A stretch of DNA of 64,000 bases from Eledone cirrhosa (Eukaryota). The position numbers and the translations under genes were made by a program. Numbering within the stretch: the stretch's first letter is position 1; each line of letters begins with the position of its first letter. The DNA lies in contig OZ024751.1 in assembly GCA_964016885.1 (NCBI GenBank), positions 49,104,001 through 49,168,000 on the forward strand. The letters are read 5' to 3'. Shown here piece after piece: positions 23,301 through 29,158 of the stretch. The notes under the pieces are model-generated. The model searched no databases. It saw nothing but the letters and a program-made list of their open reading frames with translations, and had not been told where the DNA came from.

Positions 23301-25193
23301 ATACCAGGGATATTATAAATAGATTATTTTTATTATAATAATGTATTTTCTATTTTTATTTACGTTTTTAATTTATCTTAATATTAATTTTATTTTCTAT
23401 TTTTAAACAAGTTTTTAAAATGTTCATTGGAGGCACAACATCTTAATCTCTTATGTATATTATAAAGAATTGAATTATGTTTGTATATTTTTTGCATATA
23501 AAAGGAGTCAAGAATGATTCTTTTATCAGTTCCTTCTCTCTCTCCTCTGATTTTCTATACCGCTAACGACAAATTTGCTTTTCAATCTTTCGAGGGGGAT
23601 AAACAAGCACCGGTTCATGGTTGATAGATAGGAAGAATTGTTAAAATGTTGGGTTGGTTGCCTTGTCATATCAGTTCATAGCCTGTCCCTTCTGTGTTAG
23701 AAACTGAATTCCTATTACCAGCAAATAAGAGTTACTGCCTATGTGTTGTTACAAATATATAATATCAGAAATGGGAAGACCAACTGAAACAAATGAGAGA
23801 GCTTTCAAATAGAATGAATTGCGGTATTCGAGCCAGATCTCAACAATGAGAGATCAATTCACACTGATGTGAATTTTTAATTTCATAACATTCGGCTGGA
23901 TAACTTCTCTCTCTCTCTCTCTCTCTCTCTCTCTCTCTCTCTCTCTCTCTCTCTCTCTCTCTCTCTCTCTCTCTCTCTCCCTCTCTCTCTCTCTCTTCAC
24001 AATATCTGCCCCCCCCCAACGCACAATTTTTGTCGTCATTGATCGTTCTCAGAACACAGCACCTTCATTAAAAGAACGTTACTGGGAAGTTTATATTAGT
24101 CCGTATTTATGATATGTATTTCTCGCTGACGAACAGCTGTTATTGTGTATACTTTAGTGTATTTTTCTAGACAAACACTATTTGGTCTACATTCCAGAGT
24201 ATTCCAGTCTGGGGATCAACTGTTGCTCTGTCTGAGTAGGAAACTTTTATTTATATTCATGTCTATTTCTGATCAACACTTATATATGTGTTCTATACGG
24301 GGGTATATTTCCGAACAAGAGTTTTATTGGTGTCTACACTGGTGTATATTTCTGAACAAGAATTATAGTGGTGTCTAGACTGATCTTTGATTTTATACAA
24401 CTATTGTATTTTTTATACCTGTGAGCATTTCATGAGAAATGCTGCTACGACAAAATTTCTAAATCACTTCACGTACAATTAATAAGACTTGAGCAAGTTA
24501 GACAAATTTTTATCAATTTATATTTGTTTCTCATACGACAACACTTTCGTAGTATTTATAGATGATATTAAATAGCAATTAGCTCATGATGAGCTACAGC
24601 TTAGATAATTGAATTTTCTAATCTTGTTATTACTACATCCAGTCATAACAGTGACTATAAGACATATTCACGGTACTCAAATTATTTTCCCTTCACTTCT
24701 CCCATGTGAAAAATATGTCGACACATTAGATTTCTTGCTAAAAATGAACATTTATTTTTTTCTCTGAAGCTTAAAGAAAATTACAATATAGCCCCATTCC
24801 AGAAATTATCACGTATGAAGATATTTATTACACATTATATATATATATATATACATATATATATATATATATATATATATATATATATATATATATATAT
24901 ATATATATATATATATATATATATATATTATATATATATATATATATATATATAATATATTTAGAAACACACAGATACATGCGGACACACACATATATAC
25001 ATGAATGCATCCGCACCCAACTGTGAGTTAAGGGTGCCAACTTCACCGATGTTGCTCAATGAATGACCGGGACAGACCAATTCAGTTGAACTAGACTGAA
25101 CCAGTATCAGAGTTAAAAATACATTATGAAGAGAGAAGAAACATTTAGATATAATTAGTAATAAAATGTATCATACCTAAACTGCTCCTAAAT

Positions 25194-25283
25194 TCCTCGA
25201 CTACGCAGTTTCGTGGCATAAACAAAAACAATATATCATAAAGATATAGAGTCCCTGCGAGGTCTGCCGACTTATCAAGAGGA
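25194..25283 (-). ncRNA. Hammerhead ribozyme, U3:A8 variant (595-bp unit copy 1)
   Basis: Reverse complement of 27509-27598. Confidence 0.8.
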
Positions 25284-25788
25284 TACCTCATTTTACTAGT
25301 CTCAAGAACGCGTCTACACGACGTGAGAAAGAATCCCAAAAGGCGGAGGGGGAGATAGTCACGCGATATAACGGTCGAGAAACAGAGCTAAGCCTCTTAT
25401 AACCACGAAGAAAATACCACGGAGGCGGAGGGGGTATTCATATCGAGGCCGCAGAAGAGGTGGTGAAGAAGGCTAGAAGTATGAGTAATGGAAGCTTTCC
25501 AGTTGTCCCCACACTTCAAAGATTGCTCGACCAGAGGGAGTTATTAACAATATATTTAGAAACACACAGATACATGCGGACACACACATATATACATGAA
25601 TGCATCCGCACCCAACTGTGAGTTAAGGGTGCCAACTTCACCGATGTTGCTCAATGAATGACCGGGACAGACCAATTCAGTTGAACTAGACTGAACCAGT
25701 ATCAGAGTTAAAAATACATTATGAAGAGAGAAGAAACATTTAGATATAATTAGTAATAAAATGTATCATACCTAAACTGCTCCTAAAT

Positions 25789-25878
25789 TCCTCGACTACG
25801 CAGTTTCGTGGCATAAACAAAAACAATATATCATAAAGATATAGAGTCCCTGCGAGGTCTGCCGACTTATCAAGAGGA
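25789..25878 (-). ncRNA. Hammerhead ribozyme, U3:A8 variant (copy 2)
   Basis: Identical to copy 1, +595 bp. Confidence 0.8.
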
Positions 25879-26383
25879 TACCTCATTTTACTAGTCTCAA
25901 GAACGCGTCTACACGACGTGAGAAAGAATCCCAAAAGGCGGAGGGGGAGATAGTCACGCGATATAACGGTCGAGAAACAGAGCTAAGCCTCTTATAACCA
26001 CGAAGAAAATACCACGGAGGCGGAGGGGGTATTCATATCGAGGCCGCAGAAGAGGTGGTGAAGAAGGCTAGAAGTATGAGTAATGGAAGCTTTCCAGTTG
26101 TCCCCACACTTCAAAGATTGCTCGACCAGAGGGAGTTATTAACAATATATTTAGAAACACACAGATACATGCGGACACACACATATATACATGAATGCAT
26201 CCGCACCCAACTGTGAGTTAAGGGTGCCAACTTCACCGATGTTGCTCAATGAATGACCGGGACAGACCAATTCAGTTGAACTAGACTGAACCAGTATCAG
26301 AGTTAAAAATACATTATGAAGAGAGAAGAAACATTTAGATATAATTAGTAATAAAATGTATCATACCTAAACTGCTCCTAAAT

Positions 26384-26473
26384 TCCTCGACTACGCAGTT
26401 TCGTGGCATAAACAAAAACAATATATCATAAAGATATAGAGTCCCTGCGAGGTCTGCCGACTTATCAAGAGGA
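26384..26473 (-). ncRNA. Hammerhead ribozyme, U3:A8 variant (copy 3)
   Basis: Identical, +595 bp. Confidence 0.8.
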
Positions 26474-26978
26474 TACCTCATTTTACTAGTCTCAAGAACG
26501 CGTCTACACGACGTGAGAAAGAATCCCAAAAGGCGGAGGGGGAGATAGTCACGCGATATAACGGTCGAGAAACAGAGCTAAGCCTCTTATAACCACGAAG
26601 AAAATACCACGGAGGCGGAGGGGGTATTCATATCGAGGCCGCAGAAGAGGTGGTGAAGAAGGCTAGAAGTATGAGTAATGGAAGCTTTCCAGTTGTCCCC
26701 ACACTTCAAAGATTGCTCGACCAGAGGGAGTTATTAACAATATATTTAGAAACACACAGATACATGCGGACACACACATATATACATGAATGCATCCGCA
26801 CCCAACTGTGAGTTAAGGGTGCCAACTTCACCGATGTTGCTCAATGAATGACCGGGACAGACCAATTCAGTTGAACTAGACTGAACCAGTATCAGAGTTA
26901 AAAATACATTATGAAGAGAGAAGAAACATTTAGATATAATTAGTAATAAAATGTATCATACCTAAACTGCTCCTAAAT

Positions 26979-27068
26979 TCCTCGACTACGCAGTTTCGTG
27001 GCATAAACAAAAACAATATATCATAAAGATATAGAGTCCCTGCGAGGTCTGCCGACTTATCAAGAGGA
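26979..27068 (-). ncRNA. Hammerhead ribozyme, U3:A8 variant (copy 4)
   Basis: Identical, +595 bp. Confidence 0.8.
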
Positions 27069-27508
27069 TACCTCATTTTACTAGTCTCAAGAACGCGTCT
27101 ACACGACGTGAGAAAGAATCCCAAAAGGCGGAGGGGGAGATAGTCACGCGATATAACGGTCGAGAAACAGAGCTAAGCCTCTTATAACCACGAAGAAAAT
27201 ACCACGGAGGCGGAGGGGGTATTCATATCGAGGCCGCAGAAGAGGTGGTGAAGAAGGCTAGAAGTATGAGTAATGGAAGCTTTCCAGTTGTCCCCACACT
27301 TCAAAGATTGCTCGACCAGAGGGAGTTATTAACAATATATTTAGAAACACACAGATACATGCGGACACACACATATATACATATCGTGGTTATAAGAGGC
27401 TTAGCTCTGTTTCTCGACCGTTATATCGCGTGACTATCTCCCCCTCCGCCTTTTGGGATTCTTTCTCACGTCGTGTAGACGCGTTCTTGAGACTAGTAAA
27501 ATGAGGTA

Positions 27509-27598
27509 TCCTCTTGATAAGTCGGCAGACCTCGCAGGGACTCTATATCTTTATGATATATTGTTTTTGTTTATGCCACGAAACTGCGTAGTCGAGGA
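27509..27598 (+). ncRNA. Hammerhead ribozyme, U3:A8 variant (copy 5)
   Basis: TCCTC-TTGATAA-GT(C)GGCA...TGCCAC-GAAA-CT(GCGT)AG-TC-GAGGA: 5-bp stem I, stem II with one bulge, stem III, GUC cleavage predicted after 27593. Confidence 0.8.
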
Positions 27599-28103
27599 AT
27601 TTAGGAGCAGTTTAGGTATGATACATTTTATTACTAATTATATCTAAATGTTTCTTCTCTCTTCATAATGTATTTTTAACTCTGATACTGGTTCAGTCTA
27701 GTTCAACTGAATTGGTCTGTCCCGGTCATTCATTGAGCAACATCGGTGAAGTTGGCACCCTTAACTCACAGTTGGGTGCGGATGCATTCATGTATATATG
27801 TGTGTGTCCGCATGTATCTGTGTGTTTCTAAATATATTGTTAATAACTCCCTCTGGTCGAGCAATCTTTGAAGTGTGGGGACAACTGGAAAGCTTCCATT
27901 ACTCATACTTCTAGCCTTCTTCACCACCTCTTCTGCGGCCTCGATATGAATACCCCCTCCGCCTCCGTGGTATTTTCTTCGTGGTTATAAGAGGCTTAGC
28001 TCTGTTTCTCGACCGTTATATCGCGTGACTATCTCCCCCTCCGCCTTTTGGGATTCTTTCTCACGTCGTGTAGACGCGTTCTTGAGACTAGTAAAATGAG
28101 GTA

Positions 28104-28193
28104 TCCTCTTGATAAGTCGGTAGACCTCGCAGGGACTCTATATCTTTATGATATATTGTTTTTGTTTATGCCACGAAACTGCGTAGTCGAGGA
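28104..28193 (+). ncRNA. Hammerhead ribozyme, U3:A8 variant (copy 6)
   Basis: As copy 5; C>T at 28121 turns a stem II C-G into a U-G wobble. Confidence 0.8.
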
Positions 28194-28698
28194 ATTTAGG
28201 AGCAGTTTAGGTATGATACATTTTATTACTAATTATATCTAAATGTTTCTTCTCTCTTCATAATGTATTTTTAACTCTGATACTGGTTCAGTCTAGTTCA
28301 ACTGAATTGGTCTGTCCCGGTCATTCATTGAGCAACATCGGTGAAGTTGGCACCCTTAACTCACAGTTGGGTGCGGATGCATTCATGTATATATGTGTGT
28401 GTCCGCATGTATCTGTGTGTTTCTAAATATATTGTTAATAACTCCCTCTGGTCGAGCAATCTTTGAAGTGTGGGGACAACTGGAAAGCTTCCATTACTCA
28501 TACTTCTAGCCTTCTTCACCACCTCTTCTGCGGCCTCGATATGAATACCCCCTCCGCCTCCGTGGTATTTTCTTCGTGGTTATAAGAGGCTTAGCTCTGT
28601 TTCTCGACCGTTATATCGCGTGACTATCTCCCCCTCCGCCTTTTGGGATTCTTTCTCACGTCGTGTAGACGCGTTCTTGAGACTAGTAAAATGAGGTA

Positions 28699-28788
28699 TC
28701 CTCTTGATAAGTCGGCAGACCTCGCAGGGACTCTATATCTTTATGATATATTGTTTTTGTTTATGCCACGAAACTGCGTAGTCGAGGA
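28699..28788 (+). ncRNA. Hammerhead ribozyme, U3:A8 variant (copy 7)
   Basis: Identical to copy 5. Confidence 0.8.
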
Positions 28789-29158
28789 ATTTAGGAGCAG
28801 TTTAGGTATGATACATTTTATTACTAATTATATCTAAATGTTTCTTCTCTCTTCATAATGTATATATATATATATATATATATATATATATATATATATC
28901 GTTTCTGAATTTGACCCTCCCAAAGCTATAACAATATATATATATATATATATATATATTGTTATATTTGGGGAGGGTCATATTTGCGTAATATTGCCAG
29001 AATTAATAACAGAACACACTCACTGTTTGGTTGGTTTTCGCTTCTCGCTGTCTTTTATATATATATATCTGCGATCTAACTTACTCGGTCCTCAATGTTG
29101 CCATTGACTGACCGGCGGTCAAAAATAATACATCGCCGCTATATATATATATATATAT

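Follow-up and report, generated by a model that had tools for sequence, protein, structure and literature searches.

A very young, two-armed non-LTR retrozyme insertion in Eledone cirrhosa, likely copied by Penelope-type priming from one 595-nt RNA

How did an array of almost identical, non-coding repeat units, each with a hammerhead-shaped motif, come to lie inside a (TA)n microsatellite, and on what kind of template was it copied? These questions are raised by a locus in a 64,000-nt window (the whole stretch of DNA that we analysed) of Eledone cirrhosa contig OZ024751.1. They bear on the origin of tandem and inverted Penelope insertions with a one-sided tail and on the retrozyme circle as copying template, a step that is proposed, rather than demonstrated, in the portions of the literature cited here. 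We read the array as probably a very young non-LTR retrozyme insertion, likely made by a Penelope-like reverse transcriptase (RT)-endonuclease that used a single 595-nt RNA, probably a circle, as template for priming at the two ends of a DNA break.

Layout of the array

The initial annotation had described a single retrozyme concatemer, and most of its particulars held when we re-examined the locus. The array boundaries (24954-28863), the 595-bp unit (we counted 6.57 units), the single SNP and the seven hammerhead-shaped motifs, one of which is predicted to cut 3' of 27593, were all recovered, and (TA)n flanks the array on both sides. The named hairpin motifs of the unit (GCACCC..GGGTGC among them) are present, and the duplicated motif, CCCCCTCCGCCT, occurs twice per unit, at unit positions 57 and 570. 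The concatemer itself had to be redrawn: since repeat orientation flips at 27382/27384, the array consists of two divergent, head-to-head arms, 24954-27382 on the minus strand and 27384-28863 on the plus strand (Table 1). Tandem Repeats Finder missed the 595-bp array because its period limit is 500.

With at least two consecutive units that each carry a complete type I hammerhead motif (by our own descriptor, which allows U3-A8), a G+C content of 42%, below the 45% bound for retrozymes, and a longest stop-free frame of 80 codons, in agreement with the lack of coding capacity noted at the outset, the window element has the make-up of a retrozyme. The RT and GIY-YIG open reading frame (ORF) of autonomous Penelope-like elements is absent from it.

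Table 1. Coordinates of the array and its features within the window
Feature	Position	Strand	Details
Left (TA)n target tract	24836..24953	none	
Left arm	24954..27382	minus	2429 nt = 4.08 identical units, 4 hammerheads; RNA-sense on minus
Left arm ends		minus	5' = unit position 407; 3' = unit position 455 (site B), abutting (TA)n
Hammerhead copy	25194..25283	minus	predicted cut at 25199
Hammerhead copy	25789..25878	minus	predicted cut at 25794
Hammerhead copy	26384..26473	minus	predicted cut at 26389
Hammerhead copy	26979..27068	minus	predicted cut at 26984
Head-to-head junction	27383..27383		single base belonging to neither arm
Right arm	27384..28863	plus	1480 nt = 2.49 units, 3 hammerheads
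Right arm ends		plus	5' = unit position 1; 3' = unit position 290 (site A), abutting (TA)n
Reference monomer	27384..27978	plus	595 nt, 42% G+C, non-coding
Short hairpin, unit 120-130	27503..27513	plus	competes with helix I in predicted circle fold
Type I hammerhead motif, reference copy	27509..27598	plus	predicted cut 3' of 27593
Hammerhead copy	28104..28193	plus	predicted cut 3' of 28188
SNP in right arm	28121		C>T; helix II C-G pair becomes U-G
Hammerhead copy	28699..28788	plus	predicted cut 3' of 28783
Right (TA)n target tract	28864..28899	none	

Hammerhead motif and RNA fold

The predicted hammerhead combines a 5-bp helix I, a U3-A8 core, a bulged 6-bp helix II that holds a 46-nt hairpin insert, and a palindromic helix III. 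Its core nucleotides and three helices surround a UH cut site, 96.5% of cells pair, and the U-A pair at positions 3 and 8 is a variant already in print. A genome-wide search returned 5,257 exact matches to the 27-nt motif against 0 for a reversed control, so the motif is not a product of chance; the same search bore out the dispersal that the initial annotation had anticipated. The 5' half of the hammerhead lies outside the search pattern; between subfamilies its identity is 98%, compared to 77% elsewhere.

Rfam returned no ribozyme in the window at the gathering score or at E<=10, and the 10 weak hits at E<=10 within 27384-28600 were all unrelated. RNAalifold recovered helix I and the helix II core unprompted but placed helix III in a different register. 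In the isolated motif, the hammerhead fold lies 1.3 kcal/mol above the minimum, and the 116-nt motif folded alone gave z = -0.54. Folded as a circle, the family-majority unit reached z = -5.4 on the hammerhead strand compared to -0.5 on the opposite strand (30 shuffles), in a branched structure with 64% of positions paired. Among 27 pairs examined, we found no two-sided compensatory changes; eight vary on one side, all within the insert, while the core helices are almost invariant, and covariation was no greater than in shuffles, 58 of 500 of which reached the observed value.

The hammerheads would probably cut as dimers through the palindromic helix III, and on balance we lean towards efficient self-cleavage of the predicted motif. 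Helix I is unformed in the predicted circle fold, and the competing hairpin at unit 120-130, which is conserved between subfamilies, is a possible ribozyme off-switch. In the available text of earlier work, only one of nine predicted Xenopus retrozyme dimers cleaved in vitro (bioRxiv 10.64898/2026.07.22.740005), and the anole Penelope ribozyme required protein, with cleavage dispensable for insertion (PMC11167929).

Dispersed copies, their ends and their template

Exact junctions between site A and (TA)n number 2,353 genome-wide and site-B junctions 1,064 (the latter counted on one strand), from which we roughly estimate 2,500 or more loci; 144 were analysed in detail. The copies range from dimers to multimers, as in dispersed retrozymes. 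Ends with circular permutation had been expected: the 5' ends do scatter, but those at the RNA 3' side occupy two fixed positions inside the unit, sites A and B, 165 nt apart. Seventy-nine of the 144 loci are two-armed, every one head-to-head, and their end pairs are 74 A+B, one A+A, no B+B and four with an unclassified end. Forty loci taken in chromosome order comprised 19 A+B, two other, and single arms at site A (nine) or site B (10), while 60 loci chosen for an A end gave 32 A+B, one other and no A+A. A subfamily of about 77% identity also ends mostly at sites A and B, as judged by eye. Two loci, L164 and L212, hold extra inverted pieces, which shows that template switches occur in the 595-nt family. 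The unit stretch, or part of it, is also listed in sequencing runs (20 rows from 16 studies and 17 coded organisms), of which contigs were aligned for 4 of 24; no RNA run is listed, which carries no information on expression.

An inverted 5'-truncated arm, a tail at one end and a microsatellite target make up the footprint of Penelope-type insertion, and the 595-nt family shows all three. Autonomous Penelope-like elements in the same genome follow a comparable end rule: in a Neptune-like family, all eight two-armed copies with both ends in view pair a short with a long end, and all six two-armed copies of a second family obey the same rule. Their tails measure about 55-60 and 89 nt, compared to 165 nt in the 595-nt family. 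These shared rules support the Penelope-type mobilisation put forward initially, and two-end priming of this type is highly probable. The Penelope protein is a predicted dimer (PMC11167929, in part). Of 57 Xenopus retrozyme families, 24 had a match to a known transposon, which was Penelope-like in nearly all cases. We found no significant match between the unit and the two Penelope-like families compared, and searches for an autonomous partner with shorter-loop or C3-G8 hammerhead patterns yielded 12 family variants, 3 unrelated matches and 0 matches. Penelope pieces beside L039, L064 and L088 are apparent neighbours in shared (TA)n, although at L088 a template switch could account for the site-B junction.

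Private alleles point to one template for both arms. The private allele of the window, G at 27586, is present in all seven window hammerheads; genome-wide it occurs in 13 of the 5,257 motifs, seven of which are the window copies, and in no other tandem array. All-copy private alleles were found in 28 of 120 informative loci (38 alleles, 20 of them spanning both arms), with fewer than 0.1 chance double hits expected (first 76 loci); here "private" means private among the 144 loci, and the genome-wide check covers the window allele alone, in one assembly. Since private alleles fill all copies, the two arms probably arose by repeated copying of a single monomer, for which an RNA circle offers the simplest route. 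We consider it very likely that both arms of an insertion were copied from one molecule, and reasonably likely, judging from the sequences, that this molecule was a covalent RNA circle.

The same machinery could instead have copied uncleaved linear multimer transcripts of an existing array, one or two of them supplying the arms, with no circle. The autonomous 4.2-kb elements also yield two-armed, partly tandem insertions, unprocessed RNA is the main substrate in vitro in the available text of PMC11167929, and in four of 224 arms the 5' end fits the cut site itself (two exactly and two through microhomology, judged by eye), as partly cleaved linear RNA would give. However, this route requires a source array fixed for the private allele, and the assembly holds none for the window allele; fixation of such an array would itself need repeated monomer copying, and we regard the route as unlikely. 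Under simple twin priming on a single linear RNA, moreover, the end of one arm should coincide with the start of its partner, which was the case for 1 of 78 arm ends compared to 6.7 expected by chance, so that L1-type twin priming on one linear RNA is rejected. If the template were a cleaved linear monomer, with the RT leaping repeatedly from the 5' end back to the 3' end of that one molecule, the shared private alleles would be explained as well as by a circle, and template switches are on record in the family (L164 and L212). Scars are the usual trace of non-LTR enzymes jumping from end to end, but we found read-through without them (0 indels in 331 cut-site passages) and no pile-up of 5' ends at the cut site (5 of 224 near it, 4.9 expected), which makes monomer jumping improbable.

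A DNA-level origin, in which satellite-type unequal crossing-over, gene conversion or a circle of DNA made the arrays and homogenised them and the hammerhead is a relic, would produce the tandem form, and local amplification is allowed for such repeats (bioRxiv 10.64898/2026.07.22.740005, in part). It is very improbable in view of thousands of short dispersed arrays with ends fixed in RNA polarity, a folding bias on one strand alone, selective conservation of the ribozyme half, and birth-fixed changes whose spectrum differs from that of later ones (A>G 18/62 vs 8/232). Almost perfect identity combined with inversion could also suggest a fold-back chimera or over-expanded repeat in the assembly. 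Such an artefact is scarcely credible: the two-armed layout recurs at 79 loci, each with junctions and alleles of its own; the two arms are unequal in length and end at different sites; and contigs from four other runs carry all or part of the unit, mostly at 95-100% identity.

The genomic evidence supports a retrozyme identity and the recent, rolling-circle-like origin initially proposed. In our preferred reading, with a circle as template, a genomic array would be transcribed, its hammerheads would cut monomers from the transcript, probably as dimers, and a cut monomer would be ligated into a circle. The Penelope protein would then bind the circle and cut both strands of (TA)n; one cDNA would begin at site A and its partner at site B, which lies 165 nt to the 3' side. 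Each would make 0.1 to 5 turns of the circle, displacing strands on the way, and the two cDNA ends would join, often through microhomology of 1-4 nt or with a few added bases. The 595-nt family predicts a pair of start sites, separated by 165 nt and used at one DNA end each, and one template for both arms; a linear monomer should give 80-nt and 245-nt products and a circle multi-unit products. Since an in vitro Penelope assay is available (PMC11167929, in part), these predictions are directly testable.

Birth-fixed A>G changes were enriched over later ones at all five thresholds, and a 5' U stood beside 13 of 18 of them compared to a 38% background (2-locus threshold). Among strictly private alleles, the A>G strand bias was not significant (8 A>G vs 9 T>C, p = 0.3); taken by themselves, the last 60 loci yielded 1 A>G vs 4 T>C, and G>A was likewise strand-biased. 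Selection for A-U/G-U pairing is therefore a live alternative to editing. We offer only tentatively, and with some doubt, the idea that each insertion records a single circular RNA copied simultaneously by both active sites of an asymmetric Penelope dimer, one invariably starting at site A and the other at site B, with A-to-I edits on that circle being written into the germ line in all units of both arms. If true, the family would change chiefly as a replicon of edited RNA, and mutations of the RNA stage could be read from its thousands of arrays as from a log.

Relation to known elements

Viroid-like and HDV-like circular RNAs are, like the unit, small structured non-coding RNAs with a hammerhead. 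The unit differs from them in carrying the ribozyme and folding bias on one polarity, in being branched rather than rod-like and in having thousands of genomic copies; with one motif per unit, on one strand, we reject a viroid-like RNA. Plant LTR retrozymes (type III hammerheads in LTRs) are rejected on the type I topology and tandem units, classical satellite DNA (long arrays, few loci) on array lengths of 0.1-7.6 units in 143 of 144 loci (the remaining locus was too short to align), and an autonomous Penelope-like element on the missing RT and GIY-YIG ORF.

Metazoan non-LTR retrozymes are alike in being non-coding, below 45% G+C and head-to-tail with one type I hammerhead per unit, and in being dispersed, mostly with at most seven units, in a genome where Penelope-like elements abound; the route proposed for them is the copying of a circle by a Penelope enzyme (PMC7229834; bioRxiv 10.64898/2026.07.22.740005). 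The initial annotation took 595 nt as longer than known and hence as a sign of an undescribed family. The unit does exceed the 150-450 of PMC7229834, but it lies within the 51-972 bp of bioRxiv 10.64898/2026.07.22.740005, where the mean unit is 650 in ray-finned fish, and the argument is dropped. Unlike retrozymes as described in the available portions of these sources, the family has arms that diverge from each other, 3' ends at two fixed internal sites, a (TA)n target, locus-private alleles common to both arms, a hammerhead of Penelope variant type that is predicted to be blocked in the circle, and no homologous Penelope terminal repeat in the two families compared. The words "inverted" and "microsatellite" occur 0 times in the available text of PMC7229834, and our literature search found no account of arm-specific starts, template-sharing arms or editing in retrozymes, although supplements may show such insertions.

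Neptune, Nematis, Poseidon and Naiad (PMC8557442; PMC11167929, both in part) likewise form inverted 5'-truncated copies, often with a tail at one end only and a microsatellite bias, use two internal start sites, and have both target strands cut and extended. Unlike those elements, the 595-nt family lacks an ORF and has a tail of 165 nt, compared to 30-40 nt in theirs. It keeps almost without exception to one site per arm (74 of 75 classifiable), whereas the in vitro assay in the available text of PMC11167929 shows no strand difference in bulk. In the part of PMC4209133 drawn on here, the Schistosoma Cercyon hammerhead shares the U3-A8 core, that of D. virilis Penelope the bulged 6-bp helix II and palindromic helix III, and Penelope-type variants the short helix I and expected dimer; the 46-nt insert in helix II and the small conserved hairpin overlapping helix I set the unit apart. 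Published work already covers the element class, the U3-A8 core and the one-sided tail. Altogether, this is a non-LTR retrozyme with an informative insertion footprint, whose value lies in mechanistic evidence rather than in a new kind of element.

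Organization of the array and its hammerhead motif

The array at 24954-28863 comprises 6.57 copies of a 595-bp unit (42% G+C) with a single SNP at 28121 and lies between (TA)n tracts on both flanks, which bears out the initial annotation of about 6.6 near-identical 595-bp units with one SNP inserted in (TA)n. The proposed lack of coding capacity was upheld as well, with a longest stop-free frame of 80 codons, on which an autonomous Penelope-like element was rejected. The array had also been taken for a single tandem concatemer; this view had to be abandoned, since the orientation flips at 27382/27384 to give two head-to-head arms (see table), with one base between them (27383) assignable to neither. 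The RNA-sense 5' ends of both arms meet mid-array, and both RNA 3' ends abut (TA)n.

Features of the window and a Neptune-like element elsewhere in the genome
Feature	Position	Strand	Details
Left arm	24954-27382	-	perfect match to unit, 4.08 units
Right arm	27384-28863	+	2.49 units
Second hammerhead repeat, unrelated	29159-29787		422-bp period, 95% over 209 bp
Hammerhead of 422-bp repeat	29468-29430	-	short canonical type I motif
Canonical type I hammerhead-shaped motif	171-109	-	type I descriptor
Inverted-repeat remnant	42714-46351		repeats 633 bp, 96.5%
Non-LTR retrotransposon remnant	54377-56475	+	RVT_1 (E 1.5e-27), zf-RVT, different frames
Minisatellite	13921-14800		56-bp unit, 15 copies, 95% matches
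Inverted pair	15156-16887		698 bp, 91%, enclosing 204-bp repeat
Neptune-like element, very young	L126-L128 (genomic loci), G000:C4:322579500-322604000		4,211-bp tandem unit, 775-codon open frame

The type I descriptor found seven motif copies in the array, three on the plus and four on the minus strand, and placed the cut of the reference unit 3' of 27593, so the seven type I hammerheads claimed at the outset stand as motifs with a predicted cut. Rfam did not recognise the motif. Its helix I spans 5 bp, its core is of the U3-A8 type, the 6-bp helix II is bulged and carries a 46-nt hairpin insert, and the 3-bp helix III lies within a 10-nt palindrome in most copies. Ribozyme activity is thus far predicted from sequence. 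Across 38 aligned motif copies, 96.5% of cells pair, with no two-sided pair changes and covariation no better than in shuffles. The circular fold of the unit gave z = -5.4 on the hammerhead strand and -0.5 on the opposite strand (30 shuffles), and in this predicted fold a small conserved hairpin captures the 5' strand of helix I and could thereby stop the circle from cutting itself.

A second subfamily (144 exact matches), about 77% identical to the main one, is 98% identical in the 5' half of the motif, which lay outside its search pattern, and 68% identical in the helix II insert (26 loci). Three loci (L057, L156, and L078) have unit lengths of 565, 587-588, and 585 nt, common to the copies inside each locus, and the 565-nt variant is missing most of the helix II insert.

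Elsewhere in the window, the 422-bp repeat lies 300 bp right of the array, and the 204-bp repeat recurs at several further positions. The inverted repeat at 42714-46351 accounts for the GC-skew flip; its reading frames resemble a Penelope-like RT by their motifs and had no Pfam match.

End sites and a probable common template

A DNA search of the same genome returned 1,401 candidates, of which the 40 that were scored lie on many contigs with mostly 97-100% identity, and a 27-nt motif had 5,257 exact matches genome-wide. We analysed 144 main-subfamily loci (40 in order on one chromosome, 60 selected because one end is at site A, and 44 found in prior searches, the window among them), counting a duplicated insertion once and leaving out an unrelated older piece in L196. 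The arms have their RNA 3' ends at one of two places, unit position 290 (site A) or positions 453-462 (site B), both in AT-rich sequence continuing into (TA)n, and 5' ends are dispersed over the unit (224 arms). Exact site-A junctions number 2,353 genome-wide and site-B junctions 1,064 on the forward strand alone, the reverse-strand tally being inflated by overlapping matches; the sites are therefore used about equally. Every one of the 79 two-armed loci is head-to-head, and their ends pair as A+B in 74, A+A in one and B+B in none, with one end unclassified in four. The 60 loci selected for site A include 33 two-armed ones, none with a second A end, where about half would be expected if ends were independent. 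Measurable arm junctions (45) overlap by 1-4 nt in 19 cases, are blunt in 3, and carry extra unassigned bases in 23. A 4.2-kb insertion interrupts one two-armed copy (L033:1052-5275) at unit position 408.

Relative to the family majority, all seven window copies carry a single change, the allele at 27586, and the dimer duplex is preserved at -12.9 kcal/mol with either allele. Genome-wide, 13 of the 5,257 motifs carry this allele: the seven window copies, the two arms of a locus on another haplotype, and four single matches, including a 135-nt copy that is identical to the window (five loci outside the window, four with the alignment inspected). More broadly, 120 informative loci yielded 38 private alleles shared by all copies of a locus, spread over 28 loci; 20 of them span both arms, and fewer than 0.1 double hits were expected by chance (first 76 loci). 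Arms traverse the predicted cut site up to five times, with no indels there in 331 passages. The simplest reading of these patterns would be one monomer copied repeatedly from two start points, i.e., a circle. Alternatively, the template may have been a linear multimer transcript from an unseen source array that was homogeneous already; four arms that start at or beside the cut site are a hint of linear templates in some insertions, and the 27-nt motif matches revealed no other tandem array with the 27586 allele genome-wide.

Possible RNA-stage changes and Penelope-like elements

Among unique alleles present in at most two loci, A>G accounts for 18 of 62 birth-fixed changes vs 8 of 232 single-copy changes. 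A 5' U precedes 13 of the 18 (background, 38%), the neighbour that A-to-I editing prefers. The A>G strand bias was upheld neither for strictly private alleles nor within the last 60 loci by themselves, and G>A is strand-biased too. We regard editing of an RNA stage as a possible but rather doubtful source of the birth-fixed A>G changes.

The genome contains young, intact Penelope-like elements. The first family has a GIY-YIG domain and a Neptune-type cysteine linker, and its tandem and head-to-head copies at L126-L128 are 99.6-99.98% identical, making this element a ready candidate for a Penelope assay in vitro. The second, with a C-terminal endonuclease and no Pfam match in the scanned piece, we take to be Penelope-like from its motifs. 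Copies of both families terminate in (TA)n, and their head-to-head pairs combine a short with a long end (8 of 8 Neptune-like pairs with both ends visible, three more having one end out of view; 6 of 6 in the second family). Neither shows significant similarity to the 595-nt unit, and their tails measure about 55-60 and 89 nt vs 165 nt; as its drivers, both are candidates at most. At L088:1889-1900, the site-B end of a subfamily-B copy directly adjoins a 5'-truncated Penelope-like RT fragment of like orientation, through either a template switch or later insertion.

Comparison with known systems

The queried stretch or part of it occurs in 20 sequencing runs from 16 studies. In four runs examined, most pieces show 95-100% identity, and one diverged contig has its differences confined to the helix II insert. 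Record 4 of run X4, a 620-nt contig belonging to another organism, holds the whole unit at about 98% identity and fits tandem DNA or a circle.

By sequence organisation, the family is a non-LTR retrozyme as characterised in PMC7229834 and bioRxiv 10.64898/2026.07.22.740005. The latter puts 595 nt within the published range, so the suggestion of an undescribed family from unusual length falls away; it also reports cleavage of one of nine predicted Xenopus retrozyme dimers. The family appears to behave like a non-autonomous Penelope-like element. The main texts consulted on retrozymes and Penelope-like elements contain no one-site-per-arm rule this strict and no template common to both arms. The motif itself shares its U3-A8 core, bulged helix II, and palindromic helix III with Penelope-type hammerheads, which PMC4209133 and PMC6765202 describe with these features and which are thought to be active as dimers.
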